Source: Bacteroidia bacterium (GTDB lineage: Bacteria > Bacteroidota > Bacteroidia > JANWVE01). Taken from it: a DNA stretch of 42,630 bases. The translations under genes and the position numbers were made by a program. Location: the NCBI GenBank assembly GCA_033578305.1, contig JAVQXK010000001.1, positions 1 through 42,630 of the forward strand. Reading direction: 5' to 3'. Below, one piece after another: positions 8,243-40,751 of this stretch. The stretch's first letter is position 1; each line of letters begins with the position of its first letter. Below the pieces are notes generated by a model that was not told the origin of the DNA, searched no databases, and saw nothing but the letters and a program-made list of their open reading frames with translations.

Positions 8243-8264
8243 TTAGGGTAAGAATGAAATATTC

Positions 8265-8297
8265 CCCACTTTTTCAAAGTGGGGATTTTTTTTTTTG
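8265..8297 (+). terminator. Rho-independent terminator after hsp20
   Basis: CCCCACTTT-TTC-AAAGTGGGG (9-bp stem, 3-nt loop) followed by an 11-nt T run. Confidence 0.8.
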
Positions 8298-8307
8298 CAG
8301 AGGCAGC

Positions 8308-12919: not shown

Positions 12920-12946
12920 AAGTATGTAGTTTTCTGAAAATAAGCA

Positions 12947-13270: not shown

Positions 13271-13302
13271 AAAATATATGCAGAAACATAACTGAATAAA
13301 AT

Positions 13303-14745: not shown

Positions 14746-14810
14746 TTTTTGAACTTATTTGAACTAAATAATTAGAACTATCTTGAAACTTTGAATAAAT
14801 TGGAATAAAT

Positions 14811-16208
14811 ATGCTACCTATCATACTGCTTTCTGTCTTTGGCATTATCAATTTGTTTTTGGGCTTTCTCAAAAATAGAAATATTTTGCTCATAGCCGCT
14901 TTTACTTTTACATTCATTACTTTGGTAGTCAATTTTTTAGATTGGAACAAGCCAATTATTGAATTTGATAAAGCCATTAACAACAACATGATGTCCACAG
15001 ACAACATTTCCATTTTGTTTAGTGGCATTTTGTTGCTGACTACTTTGCTGCTTTTACCCCTTTCACAAAAATATTTAAGTGAAAAAGAAGCACAACCTGC
15101 CGAATACTATGCCATTTTGCTTTTTTCGTTAGTTGGGGCAGTTATGATGGTAAGCTATGAAAATATGCTTATGCTTTTTGTAGGGGTAGAAATTTTGTCA
15201 ATTTCTATGTATGTACTCACGGGAAGCGACAAACGCAACCTTAAATCGAACGAGGCAGCATTGAAATACTTTTTAATGGGTGCTTTTGCCACAGGTTGGC
15301 TCTTATTTGGAATTGCATTTATCTATGGCTCTACGGGTGGGTTTAGCCTTACTGAAATACGAAACTTTGTGGGGGCAGGAGGAATTACAGACAACCTATT
15401 CAAATTAGGGATAGCCATGCTTTTGATAGGAATTTTGTTCAAAGTCTCAGCCGCCCCCTTTCATTTCTGGACACCTGACGTATATGAAGGCGCACCCTCG
15501 TTTTTTACGGCTTTTATGTCCACCATAGTCAAAACAGCAGGTTTTGCGGCATTGTACAAAGTTATCCTCGCTATTACTGCCACCTCTGCGGTGTATAGTT
15601 TTTGGTACTATGCCTTTTGGCTAATTACGGTATTAACTTTACTTATTGGGAATGTAACCGCTGCCTATCAAGACAATTTCAAGCGAATGATGGCTTATTC
15701 TAGTATCTCTCATGCGGGCTATTTGTTACTAGCCGTTCTTTCGTTGGTAGCACGTTCTCAGGAAAGTATTTTGTTTTATTCACTTTCCTATTCTTTGGCT
15801 ACGGTTTCAGCTTTTGGCGTATTGATTTTAGTAACCTATCCTAAAAAATCCGAAAGTTTTGATAGCTTTAATGGTTTAGCCCAAAAAAATCCGTTTTTAG
15901 CCTTTGTCATGACAGTAGCTATGCTTTCTTTGGCAGGAATTCCGCTTACGGCAGGATTTATTGGCAAGTTACAAATCTTTTCAGTAGCCTTTGAACGCGG
16001 TATGTACTCTATGCTTGTGTTTGCAGTGCTCATGTCTTCTGTTGGGATTTATTACTATTTTAAGGTAATTATTGCGATGTATCTTAAAGAAAGCAATAAT
16101 GAAAAAATTGAAGTAAGTACACCCTTTATTTTTACCTTACTAATTACTACCTTGCTGACTATCATCTTAGGTCTATCGCCAGATATATTTTTAGGACTAC
16201 TACGGTAA
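14811..16208 (+). CDS. nuoN: NADH-quinone oxidoreductase subunit N
   Basis: 465 aa. ND2/NuoN-like (FHFWTPDVYEGAP, MAYSSISHAGY). Confidence 0.9.
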   Translation: MLPIILLSVFGIINLFLGFLKNRNILLIAAFTFTFITLVVNFLDWNKPIIEFDKAINNNMMSTDNISILFSGILLLTTLLLLPLSQKYLSEKEAQPAEYYAILLFSLVGAVMMVSYENMLMLFVGVEILSISMYVLTGSDKRNLKSNEAALKYFLMGAFATGWLLFGIAFIYGSTGGFSLTEIRNFVGAGGITDNLFKLGIAMLLIGILFKVSAAPFHFWTPDVYEGAPSFFTAFMSTIVKTAGFAALYKVILAITATSAVYSFWYYAFWLITVLTLLIGNVTAAYQDNFKRMMAYSSISHAGYLLLAVLSLVARSQESILFYSLSYSLATVSAFGVLILVTYPKKSESFDSFNGLAQKNPFLAFVMTVAMLSLAGIPLTAGFIGKLQIFSVAFERGMYSMLVFAVLMSSVGIYYYFKVIIAMYLKESNNEKIEVSTPFIFTLLITTLLTIILGLSPDIFLGLLR

Positions 16209-17959: not shown

Positions 17960-18279
17960 AATGAGAAATTGAAGGATTTAACAGTAAAAAGAAATTACCT
18001 TTACAACCGAGGCAAATTTACTCAAAAAAATCTTTATATACAATTTTTGATAATTTTTTTATTTTTTTTTAAGATAAAAACGATAAAAATAGAACTGAAT
18101 GAAAGAAAAAATCTTTTTGATGCTTAGAACAAAACGAATTATCCTACTTTTAGGAATTTTGCAAAGAAACCGTGGTAAAAATGCAAATAGACCTCGTTTT
18201 TTTTCTATTTTTTTGTTTTTTGCTAACTGTTTTGTACTTTGCACCACATTTGAAACACAACACAAAAAGCAAAATACTT

Positions 18280-20073
18280 ATGAAACAGCAGCCTACCACT
18301 GTAGTAAAAAAAGAAAAACCGGTACTCGGTTTTTGGCAGATTTGGAACATGAACTTCGGCTTTTTGGGCATACAATTTGGCTTTGCACTTCAAAACGCTA
18401 ATGTAAGCCGTATCTTTGAAACCTTAGGAGCAAATATCGATGAAATAGCTATTCTTTGGATTGCCGCGCCTACCACGGGGCTACTCATTCAACCTATTAT
18501 TGGTTATTATAGTGACCGCACTTGGAGTAATACTTTCGGCAGGCGCAAACCTTACTTCCTAATTGGAGCGATTTTAGCCTCTATTGCTTTGTTTGTTATG
18601 CCTCATTCCAGTGTTTTGTGGTTTGCCGCAGGTATGCTTTGGATTTTAGATGCTTCTATCAATATCTCTATGGAGCCGTTTAGAGCTTTGATAGGTGATA
18701 TGATGTCTGAAAAGCAACGCACTATTGGTTTTGCTATGCAAACTTTTTTTATTGGTGTAGGTGCAGTAGTTGCTTCTATGTTACCTTATATCATGACTAA
18801 TTTAATTGGCCTAGAAAGTACAGCTCCCAAGGGCAAAATTCCTGCTACTGTGGTTTGGTCATTTTATATCGGTGGTCTTGTTTTTTTCTTATCTGTTTTA
18901 TGGTCTGTCATTAAAACCAAAGAATATTCTCCCGAAGAGTTAGCCGCTTATAATGGAGAACAGCATGAACATACCAAAGGAAGTGTATTTCAAATCTTTA
19001 CGGATATTACTCGCGACATTTTCACCATGCCTAAAACGATGGCTCAATTAGCCTTCGTGCAATTTTTCACTTGGTTAGCGTTATTTGCTATGTGGATTTA
19101 TACCACCTCTGCCGTAACCAGCCATATTTACGACATGAGAATGTCTTATACTAATTTTGAGAAATTATATGTTCTAATAAATGAAACCTCTGCTAATATC
19201 AAGGATAAAAAAGCTGCTGCTGAATATGACCAAATAAAAGAAAGCCTATCTCAATTACAACTCAAATACCAAGGTGATTACGAACCTGCCATGCCCTTAA
19301 ATACTATCAATTTGCTTTTAGACAATAAAATTTTAAGCGAAAATCAATTAGTCAATCTTTTTGCTGATGTTATAGAAAAAGAAAAAGTATTTAATCTCAG
19401 AACCCAAAAAATTCGCAAGGAATTAGCCAAAGCCCAAAACCAACTTAAAGAAAATCCCTCAAAACAAATTGATTTAAGCTATGAAACTTTTAGCTATTTT
19501 ACTGCTGCTGATAGGCAACAAAAATTAGGACTTGATGCCAAGACCTTAGAAAAGGTGCTTATTGTCTCTGAGCTCAAAGCTATGCGTAAGCAATATAACG
19601 ATGGTGCAGACTGGGTAGGGGTAATGTTTGCTATCTATAACGGCTTCTCTGCTATTTTTGCGTTGCTTTTCCCACCTTTTGCACGTGCCACTAGCCGTAA
19701 GACGGCTCATAAAGTAGGGCTTACTGTAGGGGGGGTGGGGCTAATTTCTATCTACTTTATGCCTAACCCTGACGCTCTATTGCTTTCTATGGTTGCCGTA
19801 GGTTTTGCTTGGGCAAGTATTCTTACCATGCCGTATGCTATCCTTGCAGGTTCGCTTCCTGCTAATAAAATGGGAATTTATATGGGGATTTTTAACTTTT
19901 TTATTGTACTGCCTCAAATTGTAGCTTCGGGAATTTTAGGTTTTATTACTGAGTATTTCTTTGATAATCAAGCTGTTTACACGCTTGTTTTTGGGGGCAT
20001 ATGTATGATTGTTGCCGCTTTGTTAGTATTTTTAGTAGATGATGAGGAAAAAAAGGAAATAGCTAACAGCTAA
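18280..20073 (+). CDS. MFS transporter of the SLC45/sucrose-transporter-like (GPH-related) type, with a roughly 155-aa insertion between TM7 and TM8
   Basis: Start taken at MKQQPTT (ATG 18280); the ORF track opens upstream at 18172. The TM2-TM3 region YYSDRTWSNTFGRRKPYFLIG matches the sucrose-transporter R-x-G-R-R-x-P-F signature. A long hydrophilic, coiled-coil-like segment (MRMSYTNFEKLY...KQYNDGADW) interrupts the 12-TM core. TTTGCACC promoter-like box at 18238-18245. Confidence 0.75.
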   Translation: MKQQPTTVVKKEKPVLGFWQIWNMNFGFLGIQFGFALQNANVSRIFETLGANIDEIAILWIAAPTTGLLIQPIIGYYSDRTWSNTFGRRKPYFLIGAILASIALFVMPHSSVLWFAAGMLWILDASINISMEPFRALIGDMMSEKQRTIGFAMQTFFIGVGAVVASMLPYIMTNLIGLESTAPKGKIPATVVWSFYIGGLVFFLSVLWSVIKTKEYSPEELAAYNGEQHEHTKGSVFQIFTDITRDIFTMPKTMAQLAFVQFFTWLALFAMWIYTTSAVTSHIYDMRMSYTNFEKLYVLINETSANIKDKKAAAEYDQIKESLSQLQLKYQGDYEPAMPLNTINLLLDNKILSENQLVNLFADVIEKEKVFNLRTQKIRKELAKAQNQLKENPSKQIDLSYETFSYFTAADRQQKLGLDAKTLEKVLIVSELKAMRKQYNDGADWVGVMFAIYNGFSAIFALLFPPFARATSRKTAHKVGLTVGGVGLISIYFMPNPDALLLSMVAVGFAWASILTMPYAILAGSLPANKMGIYMGIFNFFIVLPQIVASGILGFITEYFFDNQAVYTLVFGGICMIVAALLVFLVDDEEKKEIANS

Positions 20074-21727: not shown

Positions 21728-23728
21728 ATGAAAGATACGGCAACACAAAAAGTTATTCCTTATAGCTTATTCTCTGACTTTGACATTTATCTTTTTAGAG
21801 AAGGAAAGCACTATCGTTTATACGAAAAGTTAGGTTCACATCTGATAGAACTCAATGGAGTTAAAGGTTGTTATTTTGCCGTTTGGGCGCCGAATGCTAA
21901 TCGCGTAAGTGTAATTGGAGATTTTAACTATTGGAACGGAGAAGAGCATCAGCTTTATCCACGTTTAGATAGTTCAGGTATTTGGGAGGGGTTTATTCCT
22001 CACATTAAAAAAGGAATGATATATAAATACAAAATTTATTCTAACTATTGGGGGCAGGTCTTAGAAAAAGGAGATCCATTTGCCCTTGCTTGGGAAATAC
22101 CTCCGCGTACTGCCTCAGTAGTATGGGATTTAGAATATACATGGAACGATGGTGAGTGGATGCAAAATAGACACCAATATAATACCTTGAATTGCCCTTT
22201 TTCAGTATATGAAGTTCACATAGGTTCTTGGAAACGCAAATATGCCCAAGGAAGTAATGACTCGTTAAGTTACCGTGAATTAGCCGAGGAGTTAGTAAAT
22301 TATGTAGCAGAAATGGGCTATACGCACGTAGAATTTATGCCTGTAATGGAGCACCCGTTCTTTGGCTCATGGGGTTATCAATGTACAGGCTATTATGCAC
22401 CTTCCTCGCGCTATGGTACACCTCAAGACTTTATGTATTTGATAGATAAATTCCACGAAAAAAACATTGGTGTGTTATTAGATTGGGTTCCTTCACATTT
22501 CCCAAGTGATCCACACGGATTAGCTAACTTTGATGGTACAGCCCTCTACGAGCATGCAGACCCGCGCAAAGGTTATCACCCTGACTGGAATAGCTTTATT
22601 TTTAATTATGGTAGAAATGAAGTACGTGCTTTCTTGATTAGTAATGCTATTTTTTGGTTGGACAAGTACCATGCCGATGGCTTGCGTGTAGATGCCGTAG
22701 CCTCTATGCTTTATTTAGACTATTCGCGAAAAGCAGGTGAATGGATACCCAACATTTATGGCGGTAGAGAAAACTTAGAGGCAATTAGTTTCTTGCAAGC
22801 TATGAACGAACAAGTTTATACTGCTTTTCCAACAGCCATGACCATTGCTGAGGAATCCACAGCGTGGGGAGGTGTTTCGCGCCCTGTTTACATGAACGGA
22901 TTAGGCTTTGGCATGAAATGGATGATGGGCTGGATGCATGATACGTTGCTTTATTTCAGCAAAAATCCATTATACAGGCAATACCACCAAAATACTATTA
23001 CCTTCAGCCTTACTTATGCTTTTTCTGAAAACTTTATGCTTCCTCTTTCGCATGATGAGGTAGTACACGGTAAAGGCTCACTTTTAAGCCGTATGCCTGG
23101 AGATGAGTGGCAACGCTTCGCTAATTTACGTTTACTCTATGGTTATATGTTTACGCATCCAGGTACAAAACTTCTCTTCATGGGAGCAGAAATAGCTCAG
23201 CCTAATGAATGGAAACATGATTATAGTGTAGAATGGCATTTTCTGCAATACCTGCCTCATCAAGGCGTACAAAAACTTGTCAAAGACCTAAACATACTTT
23301 ACAAGAAAGAAAAATCACTCTACGAGAAAGCCTTCAGCCCCGATGGCTTTGAATGGATTGATTTCCAAGATGCACGTAATTCCGTTATTTCCTACATACG
23401 CAAAGCAGAAGATGCCAAAGATTATGTAATCGTGGTATGTAACTTCACCCCCGTGGTAAGACTTAACTATCGTATTGGTGTTCCTGAGAATACCACATAT
23501 GTAGAAATCTTTAACACCGACGACAAGAGCTACTGGGGAAGCGGCGTAAGAAATGAAGGTGAAATCAAATCCGAGAATATTATTTCACATGGAAGACATT
23601 TTTCAGTTTCACTTACCTTACCTCCTTTAGCAATGATGATGCTTAAAAAGAAAGCTGAACCACAAGCACAAACTGAACCTATTACCCAAAAGACAGAAAA
23701 TAATGAAGAGATAACACAAAATACATGA
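21728..23728 (+). CDS. glgB: 1,4-alpha-glucan branching enzyme
   Basis: 666 aa. GH13 branching-enzyme motifs: [58 protein letters not shown]. Confidence 0.9.
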
Positions 23729-24100
23729 TGCGAAAAAGACTAAATATACCGAAAGTTAGGAACTAAGAGCTTATCACCAAAACAAAACTTAAATGTACTT
23801 ATGAAAAAATAATGCTTTTTATAAGCAAATGTATGCACCATTGAAGTTAAAAGAGGTACCAGAGAAAGGTATAAGGCAGCATTTTTTAGAAATTGTAGGA
23901 TAGAGAAAGCAAAGAGGAACATATGCAGTACGAAAGGAGTTGGAGAGCAATCATTAACAAAGCAGAAGAAAGCTCGCAACAAGAGCAAGGAAGGACGGCA
24001 AAAAGGATTATAGCAAAAGACTTGATTTAAAAATCAGAATAAGTTTAGAAGTAACTGAAATTCTTAGATGAACTTAAAAGGTAAAATAACAAATATCTTT

Positions 24101-24424
24101 TTACCATTTCAGGTTGCTAAGCAAGCTCGTATCCACACTGCGTAAGTTGCGGTAAATCATTACGACTATAGCTAAACCTACAGCTACCTCAGCTGCAGCA
24201 ACTGCCATAATGAAAAACACAAAAACCTGTCCCGCTGGATCTGAACGATAAGCTGAAAAAGCTACAAATAGCATGTTTACAGCATTAAGCATTATCTCTA
24301 CGCACATAAAAATAATTAGTGCATTACGACGGATAAGTACACCTATTACACCAATTATGAATAATGCAACTGCAAAAAAGATGTAATAATGTAATGGAAC
24401 AAGCTTAATAACCTCGGGAACCAT
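24101..24424 (-). CDS. nuoK: NADH-quinone oxidoreductase subunit K
   Basis: 107 aa, three TM helices, with the NuoK/ND4L pattern ([28 protein letters not shown]). Confidence 0.85.
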
Positions 24425-24459
24425 AAAAATAATAGTTGTTTGAGTGATTAGAAAATAAG

Positions 24460-24972
24460 CTAAAAATTTCTCTCGCCTACTTCGCGTTTACCAAGCATAA
24501 CCGCCCCTACCATAGCAGCTAAGAACAAGATAGAAGCCAACTCAAAGGGCAATAAATAATCCCGATAAAGTACTTTTCCTAATTTTTCTACTAACCCGAT
24601 TTCTGCATCAAAGTTAATATAATCTACAGGCATAAGTTCGACTTTGCGTAAAATAGCTATAAAAAGCGTAAGCAAAATTCCACCTGAAATAACAGCGGCA
24701 AATTTAAGATAAGCGGCTTTGGTTTTCTCAGGATTTTCTTTTAGATTCAAAAACATTATTACAAATAGAAAGAGCACCATAATTGCTCCTGCATATACAA
24801 TGATATTTACAATAGCCACGAATTGAGCATTAAGCAGAATGTAATGCCCTGTAAGGCAAAAGAAAGTAAGAATTAGATACAAAACGCTATGCACAGGGTT
24901 TTTAGAAATAATCACCATAGCGGCACTAAGTAAGGCTAAAAAACTTAAAAAGTAAAACAAATAAACTGACAT
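24460..24972 (-). CDS. nuoJ: NADH-quinone oxidoreductase subunit J
   Basis: NuoJ/ND6-like ([38 protein letters not shown]...). Start taken at MSVY (24972) rather than the ORF-track start 25011. Lies 35 bp upstream of nuoK. Confidence 0.85.
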
Positions 24973-25052
24973 AAAGCCTTTATTCGGAAGTTTGAAGAAA
25001 TTTTTGCACAAAAGTAGTAAAAAAAATTACAATGCAAAAAACCGAGTAGCAT

Positions 25053-25078
25053 TTACAAAATAACGTACTATTTTGTAA
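25053..25078. promoter_or_regulatory. Perfect 10-bp inverted repeat with a 6-bp spacer (TTACAAAATA-ACGTAC-TATTTTGTAA), candidate operator
   Basis: Read directly from the sequence. Located in the divergent nuoJ/cheB intergenic region, 34 bp upstream of the cheB ATG. Confidence 0.5.
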
Positions 25079-25111
25079 TAGCTTTCTAAATTTAACCTAA
25101 CTTGCCTAGCA

Positions 25112-26164
25112 TTGATTGATTTTATGAAAAAAATAAAACTCCTTTTGGCTGACGATTCAGGTCTAATGCGGCTTATTGTCCAAGATATGCTTACCCAAGA
25201 ATCAGCCCTGGAAGTGATAGCTACTGCTGAAAATGGTTTGGAAGCTTTAGAGAAAACCCAAATCTTTGAGCCTGACGTAGTACTATTAGACCTTGTAATG
25301 AAAGATTATGACGGAATTTTTGCTACCAAAAAAATTATGCAACTATGCCCCACGCCAATTATTTTGCTTACTTCCTTAGAAAATGACCATGAAATGGTAT
25401 TTGATGCCCTCAATGCAGGAGCTTTTGATATAGTGAGCAAACCCAAAGGGGCATTTCATTCAAAGGTGAGAGAGATTAAAGAGGAATTATTACAAAAAAT
25501 TAAAATTGCCTTTGAAAACAAATCTAACCTAAAAACTATTAGCCCAGACACACTGCAAAACCAAAATCCGCATACGTTTAATACAAATCTTACCTACCAG
25601 ATTATAGTTATAGGGGCTTCTACAGGTGGTACGACTGCCATAGAACACATCCTGAAAAAGATGCCTCAAAATTTGCCTATTCCTATCGTAATTGTTCAGC
25701 ATATTCCTGCTGAATTTGGAAAATCCTTTGCTAAACGCTTAAACCAAGAAATGCCTTTTGAAGTAAAAATTGCTCAAGAAAATGAAAAATTACAAGCAGG
25801 TATAGTGTATATTGTACCTTCGGATTGTAATATGCAAATAAGCCAAAATGGGAAAAAAATCTACTTTTTTGAGAAAAATAATCAACTTTTTAAGGAATAC
25901 AACTTTCCTTCTATAGATAGTATGATGTTGAGCATAGCTAAAGTTTTTGGAAATAAAGCCATAGGCATCATTCTTACGGGTATGGGTAAAGATGGAGCTA
26001 TGGGCATGCAAGCTATTCACCGAGCAGGAGGGCTAACCATCGCCCAAAGCGAAAATACCTGTGTGGTATTTGGCATGCCAAAAGCTGCTATTGAACTGCA
26101 AGCCGTACAGTACATTCTTCCTCTTGATGAAATTAGCCAATTTGTAACCATGGCATTAGATTGA
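25112..26164 (+). CDS. cheB: Chemotaxis response regulator protein-glutamate methylesterase
   Basis: N-terminal receiver domain (LLADDSG...VVLLDLVM...SKPKG). C-terminal methylesterase with the GASTGG Ser, the QHIP His and the GMGKDG Asp. An alternative start lies at M 25124. Confidence 0.85.
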   Translation: MIDFMKKIKLLLADDSGLMRLIVQDMLTQESALEVIATAENGLEALEKTQIFEPDVVLLDLVMKDYDGIFATKKIMQLCPTPIILLTSLENDHEMVFDALNAGAFDIVSKPKGAFHSKVREIKEELLQKIKIAFENKSNLKTISPDTLQNQNPHTFNTNLTYQIIVIGASTGGTTAIEHILKKMPQNLPIPIVIVQHIPAEFGKSFAKRLNQEMPFEVKIAQENEKLQAGIVYIVPSDCNMQISQNGKKIYFFEKNNQLFKEYNFPSIDSMMLSIAKVFGNKAIGIILTGMGKDGAMGMQAIHRAGGLTIAQSENTCVVFGMPKAAIELQAVQYILPLDEISQFVTMALD

Positions 26165-26218
26165 AGCACAGAAGACAGAAATAAATCAAAATCTTGTTAA
26201 ATTTGTTTTTTTTTAGTT

Positions 26219-26755
26219 TCAAAATAACCAAATAAACAGCATTTCAATTGGAATAGAGGCAATGACAAAACGAGCTAACCATAGGTGCATTTTAGGATTT
26301 TCTTGGCAGTGCTGCTTTATGATGGCTAAAATTTGCTCATCAGTATGTGTACTTATTCGTGGTATATCTCCGTGAATTTTGAGGTTGAGTTCGTTAGCTA
26401 ATTCGGTAATTACACTAGCACTTAGAATATTGTCCAATTCCAACAAAAGAGACCGTGAAAGTTCATTTTGCTTTTCTTGTGAGTAGCTATTTCCTAAAAT
26501 GCGTTGGCAAATCAAATCAAATTCAGGTTGCCCAATAAGCCAAAAACTTATGCCTGTTTTTTCACCAACGATGTGGGTTTCAAAAATATAATAGGTATGG
26601 TAGCTTTGTTTTAGGCGTAAATCTTGGTATGTAATTTCCTCTAAATCAGTGAGCTCTACTTCGGCATGTAACATCATTGCTAACGACTTTCGGGCATTAG
26701 CAAAACCTTTTTTTATAGCATTTTCTATCTCTTGTAGTTCAGAAAATATGTGCAT
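26219..26755 (-). CDS. CheC/CheX-family-like protein (putative CheY-P phosphatase)
   Basis: 178 aa with two E/D-x-x-N motifs, each followed by a small-residue-rich stretch (EIENAIKKGFANARKSLAMML and ELDNILSASVITELANEL...P), as in CheC-type phosphatases. Its start is 8 bp downstream of the cheA stop. Confidence 0.45.
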   Translation of the reverse strand: MHIFSELQEIENAIKKGFANARKSLAMMLHAEVELTDLEEITYQDLRLKQSYHTYYIFETHIVGEKTGISFWLIGQPEFDLICQRILGNSYSQEKQNELSRSLLLELDNILSASVITELANELNLKIHGDIPRISTHTDEQILAIIKQHCQENPKMHLWLARFVIASIPIEMLFIWLF

Positions 26756-26763
26756 AAGGTTAT

Positions 26764-28527
26764 CTAAATGTTTTTTTTTACATCATTTTTTATTGTGTAT
26801 TGGGAACGATTGTTAAATAAAAAATTAAAAATTGTAGGAACATCTATTACTAAACAAACATTGCCATTCCCTAAGATAGTAGCTCCACTAATAAACATAG
26901 TTTCCCTTAAGGGGGCTTTTAATGGCTTTTCTATAATTTCCTTTTGGTGCAATAATTTATCTACCACTAAACCTACCTTACGAACACTGTCATAGATTAT
27001 AATAATTAAAACCTTCTCACTGGGTGAAAGGTTTTGCCGACTTTGAACAAAATTACGAGTGTGTAAATTTTCTTTTGCCAGCAAATCTTTAAGAAAAACT
27101 ACAGGAACGCTTTTTCCCAAATGAATAATCACTAAACCCGAGCCTGCGGCAAGTAATTGCTCTGCGGTTTTTGCCACAACGGCTTCAGTGTAATGAATAG
27201 GTAAGGCAAAAGTTTGTTGATTAAGTTCAAACAAAAGTGCAGGTTTTACTGCCATAGAAGCAGGTAAATGCAAGCGAACACTCGTACCTTCGTCAGGTTG
27301 AGTAACAATACTTACCTTTCCGCCTACACTTTCTACGGTGCGTTTCACTACATCCATTCCTATACCTCGCCCTGACACTTCGGTAATTTTTTCGGCACTA
27401 GAAAATCCTGATTCAAAAATAAAACTCATAACCTCCTCCTCACTCAATGCGTTGAGGGCTTGTGTGGGCAAAAGTTTTTTTTCTATAATTTTCGCTTTAA
27501 TTTTAGCAATGTCAATACCTTTGCCATCGTCTGTAACTTCAATTGTAACGGTATTTTTTTCAGAAGTAGCTTTGAGTAACACTACCCCCGTGGATTTTTT
27601 ACCTTTCCGCTTACGAATTTCAGGGCTTTCTATCCCATGGCTTACTGCATTTCGGACCAAATGCACCATGCTATCACTAATAATTTGCAAAATATTGCGG
27701 TCTATTTCTATCTCTGTACCTTCTAAAATCAAATCAACTTCTTTGCCTTCTAACTGAGCTATATCACGCACTATACGGTAAAATTTTTGAAATAAAACAT
27801 TCATTTGTACCAATCTTACTCCCATAACTGAATATTGTAAATCGGAAGTAATACGCTGCAAGCGTGAGAGTTTACCCTTCAAAATTTGATTTTCTTCATA
27901 TTCAGCAAGAGTAAGTATATAGTCCTTTTCAATACTTAACTCCTCTACCAAATTGAGCAAATTATCCAACTTTTTTACAGGCACAGTAATCATTTCTGCC
28001 TGCAAAGTAGGCATGGCTAACGACTTACTTTCATTGCTTGGCATTTCAACAGCTACCTCTTCTGCTTCTGGCAAATCTTCTTTTTCGATCTTTTCAAGGG
28101 CAATTTTTTCGGTTATAGGACTAATTTTTTCGCTTGTATTTTCGTTTTCTTGTTGTAATTCTCTTAAAATCACTTTCAAGCGGGTAGTTAGCCCTTTATA
28201 ATTTACGGTTGCTTGCGTTTGAATAGCATCAATCAATTCGCCAATTTTATCATTTGCTCTAAAAAGGTCATTAAAGATTTGTGTATTAAGTTTTTGCGTA
28301 TTTTTCTTTATCACACTAAAGATATCCTCTATCAGGTGTGCCATTTCTGCAATTGGTTCAAAGCCCATAGCTGCAGCGTTAGCCTTAAGGGTATGCATAA
28401 GCCGAAAAATCGCCTCAATAAGGCTCACATCCTGCGGTTTTTTTTCCAAAGAAGTAAATAATTGGTTTAGTTGCTCTCGCTGTTGATGAGCTTCTGCCAA
28501 AAAAATATTTTTTAGTTCTTCGTTCAT
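26764..28527 (-). CDS. cheA: Chemotaxis histidine kinase CheA (HPt, dimerisation, HATPase and C-terminal CheW-like domains; no P2 domain apparent)
   Basis: HPt region with the phospho-His context LMHTLKANAAAMG. HATPase_c motifs (HLVRNAVSHGIE, DDGKGID, GRGIGMDVV). The C-terminal segment has CheW-like character. Confidence 0.85.
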   Translation of the reverse strand: MNEELKNIFLAEAHQQREQLNQLFTSLEKKPQDVSLIEAIFRLMHTLKANAAAMGFEPIAEMAHLIEDIFSVIKKNTQKLNTQIFNDLFRANDKIGELIDAIQTQATVNYKGLTTRLKVILRELQQENENTSEKISPITEKIALEKIEKEDLPEAEEVAVEMPSNESKSLAMPTLQAEMITVPVKKLDNLLNLVEELSIEKDYILTLAEYEENQILKGKLSRLQRITSDLQYSVMGVRLVQMNVLFQKFYRIVRDIAQLEGKEVDLILEGTEIEIDRNILQIISDSMVHLVRNAVSHGIESPEIRKRKGKKSTGVVLLKATSEKNTVTIEVTDDGKGIDIAKIKAKIIEKKLLPTQALNALSEEEVMSFIFESGFSSAEKITEVSGRGIGMDVVKRTVESVGGKVSIVTQPDEGTSVRLHLPASMAVKPALLFELNQQTFALPIHYTEAVVAKTAEQLLAAGSGLVIIHLGKSVPVVFLKDLLAKENLHTRNFVQSRQNLSPSEKVLIIIIYDSVRKVGLVVDKLLHQKEIIEKPLKAPLRETMFISGATILGNGNVCLVIDVPTIFNFLFNNRSQYTIKNDVKKNI

Positions 28528-28908: not shown

Positions 28909-29406
28909 ATGAAACTAACCAACCGAAGTAAACAGGTAAGTAACAAAAAAATGACCTTAGCTGAAAAAATTTACTTACCTGCTATTGTAAACGGATTAGG
29001 AATTACAATAAAGCATTTGTTTAAGAAAAAAGCCACTATTCAATATCCTGAACAGCAACGCCCTATGAGCCAAACCTTTCGAGGCTTGCATGTTCTCAAA
29101 CGTGATGAAGAGGGCAGAGAAAGATGTACTGCCTGTGGCTTGTGTGCTTTAGCCTGCCCTGCAGAAGCAATTACAATGGTTGCCGCAGAGCGTAAACCCG
29201 GCGAAGAGCACCTATACCGAGAGGAGAAGTATGCTGCTGTATATGAAATCAACATGTTACGTTGTATCTTCTGTGGCTTGTGCGAAGAAGCCTGCCCCAA
29301 AGAGGCTATATTTTTGCAAAACAACAAAATGGCACCTGCCTTCTACGAACGCGGTGATGTAATCTACGGAAAAGATAAATTACTAGAACCTATGCCCAAC
29401 AAGTAA
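28909..29406 (+). CDS. nuoI: NADH-quinone oxidoreductase subunit I (2x[4Fe-4S] ferredoxin)
   Basis: Two CxxCxxCxxxCP motifs (CTACGLCALACP, CIFCGLCEEACP) in a protein of NuoI size. A possible alternative start lies at M 28951. It stands alone on the + strand. Confidence 0.85.
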   Translation: MKLTNRSKQVSNKKMTLAEKIYLPAIVNGLGITIKHLFKKKATIQYPEQQRPMSQTFRGLHVLKRDEEGRERCTACGLCALACPAEAITMVAAERKPGEEHLYREEKYAAVYEINMLRCIFCGLCEEACPKEAIFLQNNKMAPAFYERGDVIYGKDKLLEPMPNK

Positions 29407-29644
29407 AAATTATATAAAGTGTAACAAGCTCTTATTCAAAGAGATCTTGCATGTATTTGAATAAAAAATAAACATACATCAGCCTACTTTTCAGTAAATA
29501 AAAACTACGATTTGATATTGAATTTGCACCTTAAATATGGGTGCATTTTTTTCTTGCTTTTCAAGCATAAATAAAAAATTGTGTATTTTAGCACCCCAAA
29601 AACTATCTTTTCTGATTGAAACCAACACTAAAGTACACATACTC

Positions 29645-31585
29645 ATGGCACAAAATCGTGTAATTATAGAAAACGTACAACCCGAAATTGACGGCGGAAA
29701 GTACCCTGCCAAACGCGTAGTAGGGCAAATTGTAAAAGTAACTGCAGATATTTTTGCTGATGGACACGACGTTATAGCCGCAGAAGTCGCCTATAAACAT
29801 GAAAAAGAAAAAGCCTGGAAACGCAACTCTTTTACTCATTTAGGAAATGACGCTTGGGTAAGCGAATTTAAGGTAGAAAAACAAGGCTACTATGAATTTA
29901 AAATTGAAGGTTGGATTGACCATGCCCTTACTTGGCAACATAATATAGAACGAAAAATTAACGATAAGCAATTTGTTAATATAGAACTTTTAGACGGTAT
30001 TCAATATTTAGAGTCTCTTATTGAAAAAGTAACCAAAGCCGAAGGTAAGTATTTACAACATTTGGTAGATTTGTTTAGAGATAGTGAAAAATACCATGAA
30101 GCCATCAAAGAAGCTCTCTCTCCTCAACTACGCGAAATCTTTGAAAAATATCCACAAAGAAAATTTACCACTACCTACGACAAAGTGCTTCGCGTATATG
30201 TAGACAGAAAAAAAGCCCTCTTCTCTGCCTGGTATGAATTCTTTCCACGTTCCACAGGCGAGCATGGAAGGCATGGCACTTTTAAGGATTGCCACAAAAT
30301 TATCCCACGCATTGCAGCTATGGGCTTCGATACCATTTATTTCCCACCTATTCACCCTATCGGTTCAGATTTCAAAAAAGGGAAAAATAATTCGCTTAAT
30401 GCTTCTCCTGAAGACGTAGGCTCTTGTTGGGCAATAGGAAATGTAGAAGGAGGGCACAAAGATATTCTACCTGCCTTGGGTACCTTGGAGGATTTCAAGG
30501 AATTAATCAAGTATTGTGAAAGCTACGGCATTGAAATAGCTATGGATTACGCTCTGCAATGCTCTCCTAATCACCCTTATGTAAAACAATATCCACAATG
30601 GTTCAAATGGCGACCCGACGGCACAGTGCAATATGCTGAAAACCCTCCTAAAAAATACCAAGATATTTTACCTATCAATTTTGAAACCGACGACTGGAAA
30701 AACCTCTGGAACGAACTTTTGAGTATCTTATTTTACTGGATTGAGGTCGGTATTAAGATTTTCAGAGTAGATAACCCACATACCAAATCGTTTAGATTTT
30801 GGGAATGGGCAATCTCAGAAGTAAAAAAGAAGTACCCCGATGTAATATTTCTCTCTGAAGCCTTCACGCGACCCAAAGTCATGCACATGTTAGCCAAATT
30901 AGGATTTACACAATCTTACACTTACTACACTTGGCGAAATACTAAATACGAACTTTCACAATACATGACCGAGCTTACCAAGGGTGAAGGAAAAGAATAT
31001 TTTAGACCCAACTTCTGGCCTAATACCCCTGACATCAACCCTTACATCTTGCAAAGCGGAAACGAAACCCTGTTCATGACGCGCTATTTCATGGCAGCTA
31101 CGCTCAGCTCTAACTATGGCATATACGGTCCTGTTTACGAGCTCGGTATCCACACACCTATACCAGGCAAAGAGGAATACCTTGACTCCGAGAAATACGA
31201 AATCAAACAATGGGATTGGGATAAGAAAACACGTATATCAGAATTGATAACCTTAGTAAACAAAATTCGCAAAGAAAATCCCGCTTTTCATGACACAAAT
31301 AATCTGGAACTCTGCCGTATTGATAATGACCAGATTCTAGCATATTTTAAGTATGACCACGAGTCCCAAAATTATATTCTTTGCGTAGTAAACCTGGATC
31401 CTTACAACACCCAATCGGGTTGGGTACAAGTGCCTCTATACCTCATGGGTATCAGCGAAGGGCACCAGCTATGCATGCACGATTTACTTACAGGCAATAA
31501 ATACATTTGGGAACGTGAATGGAACTACGTAGAACTCAACCCAAGGTATGTACCTTTTCATTTATTCAAAATTGAGCTAAGATAA
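29645..31585 (+). CDS. glgE: Alpha-1,4-glucan:maltose-1-phosphate maltosyltransferase (GH13_3)
   Basis: Motifs FRVDNPH, DTIYFPPIHPIG, MDYALQCSPNHPYV..YPQWF, and the N-terminal VQPEIDGGKYPAKRVVG domain typical of GlgE. Start taken at MAQNRV (29645) rather than the ORF-track start 29537. TTTGCACC box at 29523-29530. Confidence 0.75.
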   Translation: MAQNRVIIENVQPEIDGGKYPAKRVVGQIVKVTADIFADGHDVIAAEVAYKHEKEKAWKRNSFTHLGNDAWVSEFKVEKQGYYEFKIEGWIDHALTWQHNIERKINDKQFVNIELLDGIQYLESLIEKVTKAEGKYLQHLVDLFRDSEKYHEAIKEALSPQLREIFEKYPQRKFTTTYDKVLRVYVDRKKALFSAWYEFFPRSTGEHGRHGTFKDCHKIIPRIAAMGFDTIYFPPIHPIGSDFKKGKNNSLNASPEDVGSCWAIGNVEGGHKDILPALGTLEDFKELIKYCESYGIEIAMDYALQCSPNHPYVKQYPQWFKWRPDGTVQYAENPPKKYQDILPINFETDDWKNLWNELLSILFYWIEVGIKIFRVDNPHTKSFRFWEWAISEVKKKYPDVIFLSEAFTRPKVMHMLAKLGFTQSYTYYTWRNTKYELSQYMTELTKGEGKEYFRPNFWPNTPDINPYILQSGNETLFMTRYFMAATLSSNYGIYGPVYELGIHTPIPGKEEYLDSEKYEIKQWDWDKKTRISELITLVNKIRKENPAFHDTNNLELCRIDNDQILAYFKYDHESQNYILCVVNLDPYNTQSGWVQVPLYLMGISEGHQLCMHDLLTGNKYIWEREWNYVELNPRYVPFHLFKIELR

Positions 31586-33901: not shown

Positions 33902-33938
33902 AACCTATAAAGTTAGCCAAAACTTTATAGGTTTTTTT
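33902..33938. terminator. Bidirectional intrinsic terminator between the convergent S41 peptidase and T9SS cargo genes
   Basis: AACCTATAAAGT-TAGCCAAA-ACTTTATAGGTT (12-bp perfect stem) followed by TTTTT on the + strand and a T-rich tract on the - strand. Confidence 0.8.
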
Positions 33939-36053: not shown

Positions 36054-36087
36054 AAAAAAAAACTCTTACCTTTCGGTAAGAGTTTTT
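36054..36087. terminator. Bidirectional intrinsic terminator downstream of nuoG
   Basis: An A9 run, then CTCTTACC-TTTC-GGTAAGAG, then TTTTT. On the - strand the hairpin is followed by T9, giving a strong terminator for the nuoH...nuoG transcript. Confidence 0.85.
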
Positions 36088-36113: not shown

Positions 36114-37163
36114 TCATTTCTCAAATTTACTTTTAGTTACCTTATTCACTATTGCTGATTTTTCTAATGGAAGTTTAGAAGGTCGATGCTCATCATCAAT
36201 TTTTTTATATTGTGCTTCGGCTTGTCTAAAACCAAAATCAGGAACTAGTTTGTGTACTTTATGATTCTGAGCAATTACTGAGGTACGTTTAATATTAGCA
36301 TTTCCTTCAATTATCCAGTCAGAAGTTTTTTTCTTCTCAAAGCGGCAGGTATTACAAATGAAATCTTTTACTTCCCCATATTCATCCTTGCGTGCAGTAA
36401 CACGAAGCACCTCTGAACCTTGGTACCAAAGTATAACCTCTCCTTTACATTTATCACAATTTCGGTGAGCATTTACAGGTTTCGTAAACCAAACTCTACT
36501 CTTAAATCGGAAGGTTTTATCAGTTAAAGCTCCTACGGGACAGACATCTATTACATTTCCTGAAAAGTCGTTATTAATCACATTTTCAATATAGGTACCA
36601 ATCTCAGCAGCATCACCTCGTTTAAGAACTCCATGAACACGCTTATCTGTGATTTGATCTGCTACATAAACACAACGATAGCATAAAATACAGCGCGTCA
36701 TGTGAAGCTGTATTTTATCCCCAATATCTATTTTTTCAAAAGTTCTACGCTCTTCTTCATATCTTGTCCCTGAAACGCCGTGTTGGTAGCTAAGATCTTG
36801 TAAATGGCATTCACCTGCCTGGTCGCAAATAGGACAATCCAACGGATGGTTAATAAGTAAAAATTCTACCACTCCTCTACGCGCCTCTAATACTTCTTCA
36901 TTGATAGAATTTTCTACTACCATACCATCCTGCACAGCAGTAATACACGAAGGTACAAGTTTAGGCATTGGACGCGGATCCTTTGCAGAACTCTGCGTTA
37001 CTTTTACCAAGCAAGTACGGCATTTTCCACCACTTCCCTGTAGTTTAGAGTAATAACACATAGCAGGTGGTACGATATTGCCACCAATCATGCGAGCAGC
37101 TTGTAAAATAGTAGTACCTTGTGGGACATCTATTTGTATATTATCAATAGTTACTTTCAGCAT
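36114..37163 (-). CDS. nuoG: NADH-quinone oxidoreductase subunit G (short form lacking the molybdopterin-like C-terminal domain)
   Basis: N-terminal 2Fe-2S motif (C..GKCRTC), the His-ligated cluster HPLDCPICDQAGEC, a 4Fe-4S motif CILCYRCVYV, and CPVGALT. 349 aa. Confidence 0.8.
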   Translation of the reverse strand: MLKVTIDNIQIDVPQGTTILQAARMIGGNIVPPAMCYYSKLQGSGGKCRTCLVKVTQSSAKDPRPMPKLVPSCITAVQDGMVVENSINEEVLEARRGVVEFLLINHPLDCPICDQAGECHLQDLSYQHGVSGTRYEEERRTFEKIDIGDKIQLHMTRCILCYRCVYVADQITDKRVHGVLKRGDAAEIGTYIENVINNDFSGNVIDVCPVGALTDKTFRFKSRVWFTKPVNAHRNCDKCKGEVILWYQGSEVLRVTARKDEYGEVKDFICNTCRFEKKKTSDWIIEGNANIKRTSVIAQNHKVHKLVPDFGFRQAEAQYKKIDDEHRPSKLPLEKSAIVNKVTKSKFEK

Positions 37164-37242
37164 AAGTATTAGGTTATTAGGGTTTGAATTATCTTCTTAT
37201 TTTTATTTCATATATTAGGTTTCTTTCAAAAAAAGGTTCAAA

Positions 37243-37461
37243 TCATATTAATTGCCTCGCTCCAAGAAGGCTGTTTTGTAATTTCTCCTCATTTTTTAGT
37301 ATATTTTTGCCATACTTGCGTTTTATATTTATATATAAGAATCCTTCCCAAATTTCATAGTCTCGCACAACTTCTTGCAATTTCTCAAAATCCTTTTTCT
37401 CCGCTGCCGAAGTTTTTACTTCTAAATTTTCGTGTGTAACGTTATTAAATAAAAAGAACAT
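37243..37461 (-). CDS. Hypothetical 72-aa protein in the slot where nuoF would be expected
   Basis: ORF MFFLFNNVTHENLEVKTSAAEKKDFEKLQ... with no recognisable similarity to NuoF. Coding status uncertain. Confidence 0.25.
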   Translation of the reverse strand: MFFLFNNVTHENLEVKTSAAEKKDFEKLQEVVRDYEIWEGFLYINIKRKYGKNILKNEEKLQNSLLGARQLI

Positions 37462-37628
37462 CAGGAGTAGGGCTTAACCTTTGTTTCATCTACCATCATT
37501 TCAGACAAGGGTTCAAAAGGAATTTTTCCTTGTCTATATAGCCAATCCGACCGTGCTATCAACTTGCGTATTACTCGTTGATGCTCTTTGGGAGCATTTA
37601 CTCCCGTTACCATTACGTCTAACATAAA

Positions 37629-38171
37629 CTAAATCCATTCAGTAGCTATCAATTCGTCAATTTTAGCAGGAGTAAGGTTTTCATAGTATTTGTAAGCTCC
37701 GTCCATACTTTTCAATTTTACTTGCAGGCAGGGGGCTCCCCCACACGCTGCTAAACATTCTACGGTTTTGAGAGTAAAGCGTTTATCAGGAGTAGTTTCG
37801 TTTACATGAATACCTAACTTCTGTTCCAAATACTCAAGAATTTCATCTGCCCCACAAATCATACATGGTCCTGTACGACAAACTTCTAATACATATTTGC
37901 CCACAGGTTCAAGGTGAAACATGGTGTAAAAGGTAGCCACTTCGTACACCTCAATTGGTTGGATATTTAGGAGCTCGGCTATGTAATCCATTACATTCAC
38001 ACTAATCCAACCGAATTGAGTTTGAGCGATGTGTAAGATAGGCAATATAGCCGATTTTTGCTTGCCCTCTGGGTAGCGTTTAATAATTTCTTGTACTTTA
38101 GCAAGATTCTCTTCTGTAAACTTTGCTCCCACGTGGTAGCTCCTGTCAGTATTAAAACGATAAGCAGACAT
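37629..38171 (-). CDS. nuoE: NADH-quinone oxidoreductase subunit E (24-kDa, 2Fe-2S)
   Basis: 180 aa with the four Cys arranged CRTGPCMICG...CLAACGGAPC typical of NuoE. Confidence 0.85.
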   Translation of the reverse strand: MSAYRFNTDRSYHVGAKFTEENLAKVQEIIKRYPEGKQKSAILPILHIAQTQFGWISVNVMDYIAELLNIQPIEVYEVATFYTMFHLEPVGKYVLEVCRTGPCMICGADEILEYLEQKLGIHVNETTPDKRFTLKTVECLAACGGAPCLQVKLKSMDGAYKYYENLTPAKIDELIATEWI

Positions 38172-38221
38172 TTTTTATTTTTAATCAGAATAATATTTTG
38201 AAATAATACTCTTTGTAACTC

Positions 38222-39484
38222 TTATGCATCAAGTTCTCCTGCAATTACGTTAAGGCTACTCATGGTTACTATTGCGTCAGAAAGTTGTTGCCCTACACAC
38301 ATTTCAGGATAGGCTTGATAATAGATAAAACAAGGTCTTCTAAAATGTAAGCGATATGGGGTACGTCCTCCATCCGAAATAAGGTAAAATCCTAACTCCC
38401 CGTTAGCACCTTCTACAGAATGATAAACCTCTCCTACTGGCGCATCAATTTCACCCATTATAATTTTGAAGTGATAGATCAATGCTTCCATTTTTGTATA
38501 AACATCTATTTTGGGCGGTAGATAGTAGCGAGAGTCATTAGCATAATAACTTCCTTCTGCCTTAGGCAATTTTTCTAAGGCTTGCTCAATGATGCGAAGG
38601 CTCTGCCACATCTCTTCATTACGTACCATAAAACGGTCGTAGCTATCACCATGTTGCCCAACAGGGATATCAAATTCAAAATCTTGATACCCTGAATAAG
38701 GGTTCATGACACGTACATCATAATCTACGCCTGTAGCTCGTAGGTTAGGACCTGTAAAACCGTAATTTATAGCCCTCTCTGCTGAAATAGCTCCCACCCC
38801 GATAGTTCTATCCATAAAAATACGATTTCGATTAAACAATTTTTCAAACTCCCGCATCACAGGAGGAAATTCTTTTACAAATTTCTTGATCTTAGCGAGA
38901 GCTGTTTCAGAAAAATCACGTTCCATGCCACCAATTCTACCCATGTTCGTGGTAAGTCTTGCCCCACATACCTCTTCATATATTTCGTAGATATGTTCGC
39001 GCTGCTGAAAAAGATATAAGAAACCCGTAAAAGCTCCTGTATCCACTCCTAAAATAGAATTACAAATTATATGGTCGGCGATGCGTGCTAGTTCCATCAT
39101 AATTACACGCATGTATTGTGCTTTTTGCGGAACTTGCACTCCTAAGAGCTTTTCTACTGTCATCCACCAACCCAGGTTATTGATAGGTGCAGAACAGTAA
39201 TTCAAACGGTCTGTAAGGGGAGTAATTTGGTAGAAAGGTCTGTGTTCTGCAATTTTTTCAAATGCTCTATGAATATAGCCAATTGTAGGTACTCCTGATA
39301 CTATTTTTTCCCCATCCATCTGTAAGACATTCTGGAAAACACCATGCGTAGCAGGATGTGTAGGACCTAAATTGACCGTAGTAAGTTCATTAAGATAAAC
39401 AGCATCTTCTACCACTAAATTTTTTGAACCTAGTTCCTTCAAAAGGGCTTCGTCTTTTTCTATAACCGCTAATTGATTTGCCAT
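38222..39484 (-). CDS. nuoD: NADH-quinone oxidoreductase subunit D (49-kDa)
   Basis: 420 aa. NuoD motifs LNLGPTHPATHGV, RIGGMERD and the C-terminal ...PCFIYYQA... region. Confidence 0.9.
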   Translation of the reverse strand: MANQLAVIEKDEALLKELGSKNLVVEDAVYLNELTTVNLGPTHPATHGVFQNVLQMDGEKIVSGVPTIGYIHRAFEKIAEHRPFYQITPLTDRLNYCSAPINNLGWWMTVEKLLGVQVPQKAQYMRVIMMELARIADHIICNSILGVDTGAFTGFLYLFQQREHIYEIYEEVCGARLTTNMGRIGGMERDFSETALAKIKKFVKEFPPVMREFEKLFNRNRIFMDRTIGVGAISAERAINYGFTGPNLRATGVDYDVRVMNPYSGYQDFEFDIPVGQHGDSYDRFMVRNEEMWQSLRIIEQALEKLPKAEGSYYANDSRYYLPPKIDVYTKMEALIYHFKIIMGEIDAPVGEVYHSVEGANGELGFYLISDGGRTPYRLHFRRPCFIYYQAYPEMCVGQQLSDAIVTMSSLNVIAGELDA

Positions 39485-39526
39485 ATTGTAGGTATTATAA
39501 AATAAATTTTTGAGCTTGCCTAAATA

Positions 39527-40033
39527 TTATCTACCAAAATATAAATCCTCTTTATCCCTGCGAGTAGCATCTTCTAAAGGATACTCTTTTCGCATGGGGT
39601 GATAATCCATATCATCTACATTCAAAATGCGTGTGAGGTTAGGATGTCCGTCAAAAATAATTCCATAAAAATCATAGGTTTCCCGCTCTTGCCAATTCGC
39701 TGAGGCATAAAGTTTAGTAAGGGTAGGTACTCTTGGATTTTCTATAGGTACAAAAGTTTTTACACGTAGATAGATATTATGTAGCCAACTATGCACATGA
39801 TATACTACACCGAGTTCCTTTCCTTTATTGTCAGGAAAATGTACGCCGCACAAGTCAGTTAGAAAACGAAACTGAAATTGCTTATGAAAAAATAAATATT
39901 CAAACAATTCAGGAATTTTTGCGGGCTCACACGTAAAGGTGAGCATACCATACGGCACTTCAATATCAGAAATGCTATTCCCAAATTGACTAATTAGGTC
40001 TTCTATAATAATTTGATGCGAAAGCTCTGCCAT
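39527..40033 (-). CDS. nuoC: NADH-quinone oxidoreductase subunit C (30-kDa)
   Basis: 168 aa. The ...WQERETYDFYGIIFDGHPNLTRIL... region is typical of NuoC. Confidence 0.85.
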   Translation of the reverse strand: MAELSHQIIIEDLISQFGNSISDIEVPYGMLTFTCEPAKIPELFEYLFFHKQFQFRFLTDLCGVHFPDNKGKELGVVYHVHSWLHNIYLRVKTFVPIENPRVPTLTKLYASANWQERETYDFYGIIFDGHPNLTRILNVDDMDYHPMRKEYPLEDATRRDKEDLYFGR

Positions 40034-40101
40034 GGATAATTTTTAGATTTGATTTTACTTTTACACCTAACTTAACAATATTCTTAAATCTTGGTTAGGT
40101 C

Positions 40102-40653: not shown

Positions 40654-40751
40654 ATATTTTTAAGTTTAGAAGTTTCACAATCAAAATACAGACTATACTT
40701 ATTAATGTAACTTGTGTATTATTCAAAATGTTTAACTTTCTAAGGCTAACG

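Follow-up and report, generated by a model that had tools for sequence, protein, structure and literature searches.

Dispersed cheA, cheC-like and cheB genes in a Bacteroidia contig as a probable fragment of one Cytophagales-type chemosensory pathway

Contig JAVQXK010000001.1 of a metagenome-assembled genome (MAG) of a Bacteroidia bacterium (GCA_033578305.1) was analysed over positions 1 to 42,630 of the forward strand; this stretch is referred to as the window. It carries three genes of a chemosensory (Che) system, cheA, a cheC-like gene and cheB, flanked by genes for complex I (nuo). These three genes are probably a fragment of one Cytophagales-type chemosensory pathway that was scattered by genome rearrangement, and a conventional CheA-CheY phosphorelay is its most likely mode of operation. 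The identities of the parts are established by domains, profiles and fold, the catalytic residues are intact, the proteins are orthologous to counterparts encoded in operons of related bacteria, and the cheA-cheC pair is invariant among the loci compared. The three genes were located as follows.

26764-28527, minus strand: cheA, 587 amino acids (aa), with the Pfam domains Hpt, H-kinase_dim, HATPase_c and CheW (P5)
26219-26755, minus strand: cheC-like gene, 178 aa, start 8 nt past the cheA stop
25124-26164, plus strand: cheB, ATG at 25124 as the likelier start; an alternative TTG start at 25112 gives the longest open reading frame (ORF)

A preliminary description of this DNA had named the same three genes, had placed the CheC/CheX-like ORF 8 bp after cheA and had described cheB as convergent to this pair. 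All three identities are upheld, the distance was confirmed by the ORF listing, and the convergent arrangement was recovered from the ORF listing together with the Pfam and NCBIfam scans.

In CheA, four Pfam domains were found above their cut-offs, namely Hpt (residues 4-102; 47.6 bits vs a cut-off of 24.6), H-kinase_dim (178-235), HATPase_c (285-423) and CheW (430-568). Among the NCBIfam models CheA_Halo was matched with 386 bits and the E. coli-type CheA model with 294 bits, each in two stretches that skip P2. His45 within HTLKANAAAMG aligns to HSIKGGAGTFG of E. coli CheA (6s1k) with the HxxK motif kept, and this phospho-accepting histidine as well as the residues of the N, G1 and G2 boxes are invariant in a 28-sequence family alignment. 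The alignment to E. coli CheA comprises P1 (8-110) and P3-P5 (173-566), the latter corresponding to E. coli residues 257-640 and aligning also to T. maritima CheA (1b3q). P2, the docking domain for CheY and CheB, is common in CheA proteins, but it is not obligatory. The earlier claim of a P2-less CheA is borne out, since no Pfam match to P2 was obtained, the region is skipped in the alignments to reference CheA proteins, and the linker of about 60 aa between P1 and P3 is unconserved across the 28 family members. The CheW-like domain that had been described as fused is present as well, but it is the standard P5 of every CheA and not an unusual fusion. The protein annotated as "ATP-binding protein" in the MAG is thus CheA.

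For the 178-aa protein, comparisons with the single sequence gave below-threshold matches to Pfam CheC (16 bits) and CheX (E 0.22), a weak match to the NCBIfam model of Thermotogales CheC (E 1.9e-6) and a weak match to an archaeal CheC-like structure. A total of 48 relatives was recovered by database search followed by profile search, several of them labelled CheC by JGI or NCBI and some with PF04509. A 41-sequence family profile matched T. maritima CheC (1xkr) with an E-value of 1.3e-11, in register over residues 3-141; it found CheC, FliY and the archaeal CheC-like protein, and no CheX at E<=1. Pfam CheC was matched at E<=0.05 by 30 of the 41 family members and Pfam CheX was touched by seven, while orthologues in Thermoflexibacter (24.5) and Flammeovirga (29.5) score above the Pfam CheC cut-off. 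The AlphaFold2 (AF2) model of the protein reached a predicted local distance difference test (pLDDT) of 91.4 and a predicted template modelling score (pTM) of 0.86, and the top 38 matches of the model in a Foldseek search of the PDB were all CheC, FliY, CheX or FliM. The best fold matches were the CheC structures 2f9z (E 1.4e-11, query-normalised template modelling score (TM-score) 0.71) and 1xkr (0.74), in comparison to poorer query-normalised TM-scores of 0.63-0.68 for CheX folds. CheC similarity was therefore detected both by profile and by fold, and the phosphatase assignment of the preliminary description gains support.

The published active-site consensus of CheC, CheX and FliY is D/S-x3-E-x2-N-x21-P (PMC12887009). 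This motif occurs once in the 178-aa protein, as S102-LLL-E106-LD-N109-x22-P132 with a spacing of x22 instead of x21; all 41 homologues keep its E, N and P, and it aligns to the second active site of T. maritima CheC. At the first site of T. maritima CheC (E13/N16), the protein has N12 and K15 in register with 1xkr as judged by eye. S5-x3-E9-x2-N12 was considered as a first active site and rejected; its register differs from that of T. maritima CheC, Leu replaces the Pro, and it is absent from the homologues. Since only the second CheC site is kept, the protein is, as judged from profiles and the predicted fold, a CheC-fold protein with a single predicted active site, as in CheX. The NCBI "hypothetical protein" NZ519_00315 can accordingly be annotated as a putative CheC-family phosphatase with one active site.

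CheB consists of an N-terminal Response_reg and a C-terminal CheB_methylest domain (Pfam) and scores 352.5 bits vs a cut-off of 293 for the NCBIfam CheB model. In the alignment to Salmonella CheB (1a2o) the Asp of the receiver (REC) domain and the catalytic Ser/His/Asp residues are kept within the motifs LD(L)vM, GASTGG, QH(I)P and GMGxDGA. By BLAST the protein is 53% identical to the operon-encoded CheB of a related locus (L012, see below).

Inside the 42.6-kb window no gene for a methyl-accepting chemotaxis protein (MCP), CheW, CheR, CheD or a single-domain REC protein was detected by Pfam and tblastn, in agreement with the preliminary description. The additional conclusion that the three genes form a stand-alone module is an effect of the window edge. 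A nuoH look-up led to an extension, locus L013 on contig JANWVW010000002.1 (GCA_025056095.1, "Bacteroidia bacterium"), which continues 9 kb past the right end of the window (window coordinate = 51784 - L013 coordinate). On the same contig a stand-alone CheY and a receptor are encoded 4-9 kb past the right end.

approximately 46695-47063 (window-equivalent), plus strand: cheY, a 122-aa REC protein (Pfam), about 18 kb from cheA
start at approximately 50300 (window-equivalent), plus strand: PAS-HAMP-MCP receptor, 886 aa (PAS, HAMP_2 and MCPsignal), about 22 kb from cheA

The CheY is 56-66% identical to the CheY proteins of Cytophagales che operons (BLAST), its closest structures are the CheYs of Pyrococcus and Thermotoga, and its phospho-acceptor residues are intact. 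By BLAST, the receptor shares 45% identity in its N-terminal part with the MCP from the L012 operon, and no transmembrane segment was predicted in its 494 readable N-terminal residues. Because an orthologous CheY and an orthologous MCP lie on the same contig, the che genes of the window are not orphaned. Homologues of CheW, CheR, CheD and ParA were not found by tblastn in the window and L013, together about 52 kb; of the components missing from the window, cheY and the MCP were thus recovered on the contig and cheW and cheR were not.

Related bacteria encode the system in more compact form. Among 8000 candidates scored, 3727 CheA homologues were obtained at E<=1e-10. The 120 CheA matches listed are all 44-100% identical, the best homologues at about 50%, and those named by source are nearly all Cytophagales (Thermoflexibacter, Flammeovirga, Sediminitomix, Limibacter, Chondrinema, Catalinimonas and Microscillaceae). 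The statement of the preliminary description that Che-like systems are uncommon in such lineages is not supported by these numbers. The gene orders in the relatives were as follows.

Ohtaekwangia koreensis: parA-PAS MCP-cheW-cheD-cheY-cheB-cheA-cheC-cheR
Locus L011: parA-MCP-cheW-cheY-cheB-cheA-cheC
Locus L012: MCP-cheW-cheY-cheB-cheA-cheC-cheR
Flammeovirga and Sediminitomix: parA-giant PAS MCP-cheW-cheY-cheA-cheC
Two Cytophagales MAGs: cheY-cheA-cheC, in one of them (UBA2561) with cheR-cheB 6 kb off
Thermoflexibacter (two genomes): cheA-cheC-GAF/PAS protein-gldH only

A CheC-family gene is located directly downstream of cheA in all ten loci, and each of the encoded proteins has exactly one E-x2-N-x21/22-P motif. 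The che system is thus common in Cytophagales, with genes that are sometimes dispersed and with the cheA-cheC pair as a fixed core. If the ancestral order was cheB-cheA-cheC, a single inverted cheA-cheC block would account for the convergence of cheB with this pair in the window. No hydrophobic or transmembrane segments were predicted in the receptors examined. Cytophagales che operons open with a gene for a ParA/MipZ-type ATPase followed by that of a receptor with multiple PAS domains and no transmembrane segment, of up to 2084 aa; such starts are present in L003 (2773-5852), L011 (3346-7914), L015 (1598-8957) and L016 (3518-8922). In L012 the CheA homologue (8088-10331, 747 aa) has a duplicated P1 (Hpt) domain, and P1 of the window CheA (4-141) aligns to it twice, at 5-145 and from 165 on. 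In both Thermoflexibacter genomes gldH, encoding a gliding lipoprotein, follows right after the cheA-cheC-GAF/PAS protein genes (L010, 10253-10765; L017, 14082-14471).

Taken as one pathway, these parts would operate as follows. A cytoplasmic methyl-accepting receptor with multiple PAS and HAMP domains would control the P2-less CheA via a CheW that, like CheR, is expected to be encoded elsewhere in the genome. CheA would phosphorylate the stand-alone CheY and the REC domain of CheB, the CheC-like protein would dephosphorylate CheY-P through its single E106/N109 site, and CheB-P would demethylate the receptor for adaptation together with CheR. As no transmembrane segment is present in the readable part of the receptor, its stimulus is probably of an intracellular, redox, light or oxygen type.

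Several points weigh against this reading. The CheC-like protein scores 16.0 bits with Pfam CheC (PF04509), under the gathering cut-off of 22, and the first-site positions are unconserved in the family consensus, so that its activity could be weak or altered. Since CheW and CheR were not found in the approximately 52 kb covered, the completeness of the pathway is inferred. The MAG contig and the Logan contigs used for the gene order represent one sequencing run. Moreover, no experiment or paper linking a Cytophagales-type Che system to an output was found in the literature searched.

The flanking genes were considered as a possible clue to the function. Across the window, the nuo operon lies in at least six separate blocks that are distributed over the two strands, and nuoF was not seen.

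3353-3724, minus strand: nuoA
10994-16208, plus strand: nuoLMN
24101-24424, minus strand: nuoK, left flank of the che genes, context only
24460-25011, minus strand: nuoJ, left flank of the che genes (Pfam Oxidored_q3/Oxidored_q2 across nuoJ and nuoK)
28909-29406, plus strand: nuoI, right flank, divergent from cheA (Pfam 4Fe-4S dicluster families)
36114-41783, minus strand: nuoG, E, D, C, B and H, with nuoH ahead of nuoB

The preliminary description had located the che genes exactly where nuoI and nuoJ would normally abut. The flanks are indeed nuoJK and nuoI, but nuoI and nuoJ are on opposite strands, which excludes a simple insertion at an intact nuoI-nuoJ junction. The nuo pieces are interleaved with glycogen/alpha-glucan genes, a major facilitator superfamily (MFS) transporter, an S41 protease and two type IX secretion system (T9SS) cargo proteins, and no nuo or glycogen (glg) genes were located within 10 kb of cheA in seven related loci. 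The position next to nuo genes is therefore most readily seen as a side effect of rearrangement, it loses the significance that had been attached to it, and a functional link to complex I was rejected. A recent horizontally acquired island found no support either; the GC content of 0.34-0.37 is like that of the neighbouring sequence, and no mobile-element genes adjoin.

Among the rival explanations, a self-contained minimal module of CheA, the CheC-like protein and CheB without its own MCP, CheW, CheR and CheY, perhaps tied to complex I, for example for energy sensing, would fit the lack of any other che gene within the window, the physical flanking by nuo genes and the PAS-rich receptors of the family, which are compatible with redox or energy sensing. 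It is regarded as highly improbable and is already largely refuted by the CheY and MCP genes 18-22 kb off on the same contig and by the lack of nuo genes within 10 kb of cheA in seven related loci; the fragmentation of nuo amid unrelated glycogen, protease and T9SS-cargo genes and the opposite strands of nuoI and nuoJ speak against it too. Moreover, methylated receptors are the one known substrate of CheB. That the genes are instead a decaying remnant of a pathway that the lineage is losing, with no working system left, would be in line with their scattering, with CheW and CheR not being seen in 52 kb, and with a CheC-like protein that, at 178 aa, is shorter than all other family members, belongs to the most divergent ones (22-31% identity) and is labelled only as hypothetical by NCBI. 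This explanation is improbable as well, given that all five ORFs were seen at full length and free of frameshifts, that the catalytic and phospho-acceptor residues of CheB, CheY, CheA and the CheC-like protein are intact, and that the AF2 model of the latter shows a complete and confident fold. In addition, the occurrence of a 74%-identical CheA in a different sample points to maintenance of the gene by the lineage, and cultured relatives, Thermoflexibacter among them, have systems that are complete although scattered.

The remaining rival concerns the output and assumes an alternative cellular function, in which CheY-P or the 133-aa REC protein (REC133) would act via protein phosphatase 2C (PP2C) and SiaC-like partner switching on biofilm, cyclic di-GMP or development and not on motility. 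The genes relevant to it in the MAG, together with those adjoining them, are listed below.

41952-42630, plus strand: 5' part of a gene encoding a 468-aa PP2C protein (SpoIIE domain) with a membrane anchor (SpoIIE468; residues 1-226 at 41952-42629 by tblastn)
L013 5125-7599, past the window and before cheY: GH57 enzyme (Pfam)
past the window, between cheY and the following pair: esterase (Pfam)
past the window, between the esterase and the MCP, minus strand: SpoIIE436 and REC133 pair (Pfam)

In the MAG the REC133-SpoIIE436 pair is divergent from the MCP gene, and SpoIIE468 lies two genes from cheY. Both Thermoflexibacter genomes encode a homologous PP2C (35% identical) two genes upstream of cheA, in L005 a CheC-family gene is followed by SpoIIE-DUF6272-SiaC, and in UBA2561 DUF6272-SiaC directly precede cheR-cheB. 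The PP2C, DUF6272 and SiaC genes beside che genes are located at L013 1779-3523 and 8426-9832, L005 10740-12664, L008 1856-2832 and L010 794-3115. Against this, Ohtaekwangia, L011, Flammeovirga and Sediminitomix have none of these genes at distances of up to 10 kb from cheA; Cytophagales possess many PP2C genes, which makes a chance neighbourhood plausible. The plain single-domain CheY, whose nearest matches are the motor-binding CheYs of Thermotoga and archaea, and the gldH gene adjoining the Thermoflexibacter cluster likewise speak against partner switching, and this rival is considered unlikely, though with a real chance of being correct.

For the scattered Cytophagales-type pathway preferred here, control of a non-flagellar behaviour is favoured, but the output can only be guessed roughly. 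Surface or gliding motility is given somewhat less than an even chance, favoured by hosts that glide, a plain single-domain CheY and the position of gldH; a PP2C/partner-switch route, favoured by the recurrence of PP2C, DUF6272 and SiaC beside che genes in the MAG, Thermoflexibacter, UBA2561 and L005, and something else altogether receive a smaller and about equal share each. As far as the literature searched shows, the earlier statement that the output of such systems is uncharacterised still stands, and no Che input is described in the papers found on T9SS gliding; literature searches for gliding Bacteroidota with Che systems gave no relevant result.

Among known systems, the closest are the pathways of Thermotoga, Bacillus and archaea that use CheC (and CheD) instead of CheZ. 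CheA, CheY, CheB and a CheC-fold phosphatase are shared with them, and CheD and CheR are encoded in the Ohtaekwangia operon. Both the family profile and the AF2 model of the CheC-like protein have their best match in T. maritima CheC, the CheY of the MAG is nearest to those of Pyrococcus and Thermotoga, and CheA scores higher on the haloarchaeal than on the E. coli-type model. In contrast to these pathways, the system described here has a CheA without P2, a CheC-like protein with the second site only and soluble multi-PAS receptors, and its hosts are T9SS-bearing, apparently non-flagellated Cytophagales. With CheX the CheC-like protein shares a single E-x2-N site, placed on the long helix of its second half (consensus in PMC12887009), but at 178 aa vs approximately 150 aa it is longer, and its sequence profile and fold are nearer to CheC.

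The ParA/MipZ-type ATPase and the receptor without transmembrane segment at the start of Cytophagales operons are also reminiscent of the cytoplasmic chemosensory cluster of Rhodobacter sphaeroides, which has soluble receptors and the ParA-like protein PpfA. By analogy, this gene pair hints at an array in the cytoplasm whose position is set by a ParA-like protein. In contrast to the R. sphaeroides cluster, the Cytophagales system is known from genes alone, and no parA homologue was found in the 52 kb of the MAG; a further difference is that the R. sphaeroides system is not known to include CheC. The Dif pathway of Myxococcus xanthus, of which the CheC homologue DifG is part and which is not known to have a CheB or CheR, resembles the Cytophagales system as a Che-like pathway of a gliding, non-flagellated host with a CheC-type phosphatase encoded alongside CheA. 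Its receptor is transmembrane, unlike those described here, and the likeness is one of analogous gene content only. The output of Dif is not flagellar; DifE, its CheA, functions in the regulation of exopolysaccharide (PMC4671073).

In the divergent intergenic region of 100-112 bp between nuoJ and cheB the following element was located.

25053-25078, no strand assigned: inverted repeat of 10+6+10 nt

The preliminary description had reported a perfect 26-bp palindrome in the cheB promoter region. The location is correct, but perfect complementarity is restricted to the arms, TTACAAAATA (25053-25062) and TATTTTGTAA (25069-25078), which enclose the non-palindromic spacer ACGTAC and extend to 15 nt at 87% complementarity. 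Perfect-arm repeats of this kind gave nine overlapping hits at four loci in the window vs 0.86 hits per shuffle, an excess over the number expected by chance. The nuoJ/cheB repeat may be an operator or a pair of opposite-facing promoter elements. The three other perfect-arm repeats with arms of at least 10 nt (8263-8285, 33903-33932 and 36058-36087) are probably terminator hairpins, as they are located at gene 3' ends (HSP20/T9SS cargo, S41 protease/T9SS cargo and nuoG).

On the plus strand, positive GC skew to the left of approximately 23500-26500 gives way to negative skew on the right side, largely regardless of gene orientation, and the cumulative GC skew peaks at approximately 24 kb. This switch could correspond to the terminus of replication, the edge of an inversion or a join made during assembly. 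Because of the skew switch at approximately 23.5-26.5 kb and the 11-6-11-like architecture of the nuoJ/cheB repeat, a dif (XerC/D) site was considered, with the supplement of PMC3025954 as the source of reference sites. It was rejected, as only 7-9 of 22 positions match the Bacteroidetes dif predictions, and the window contains no sequence within 3 mismatches of the Bacteroidetes dif consensus (...TATAATTTAYATTATGTWAAAT, 28-bp site).

Further genes are present in the window. A GH31 enzyme, the MFS transporter, GlgB and a GlgE-like maltosyltransferase are encoded at 3602-6316, 18172-20073, 21728-23728 and 29537-31585. Two small ORFs (54 and 72 aa) between nuoE and nuoG (37243-37625) have no Pfam match. 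At 519-2093 a 524-aa protein is encoded for which tetratricopeptide repeats in the N-terminal part are the sole Pfam report; by eye it has an internal hydrophobic stretch and a C-terminal region resembling a LuxR-type helix-turn-helix. Leftward extension via nuoA yielded only a 6.9-kb contig. With two T9SS C-terminal-domain proteins and no flagellar genes found in the window by Pfam scans, the earlier assignment to a non-flagellated, T9SS-bearing Bacteroidota context is in accordance with the data.

The window on its own matters little, since its che genes are standard ones from a family found widely, and in part annotated, across Cytophagales, and the odd position of these genes reflects a general scrambling of gene order. 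The question of the output belongs to the whole Cytophagales family and not to the locus in the window. Work on the steering of gliding in Bacteroidota reports no known sensory transducer (PMC12239597), which makes cultured hosts, for example Flammeovirga, Ohtaekwangia and Thermoflexibacter, a sensible place to look for one. It has a small chance of being correct that the Cytophagales-type pathway is the missing cytoplasmic sensory input for T9SS gliding, or that it signals via PP2C/SiaC partner switching; if true, either output would be uncharacterised for a Bacteroidota Che pathway. At the level of the family, the modest gain is that gliding, non-flagellated bacteria carry a Che pathway whose receptors are cytoplasmic PAS proteins and in which cheA and cheC form a fixed pair.

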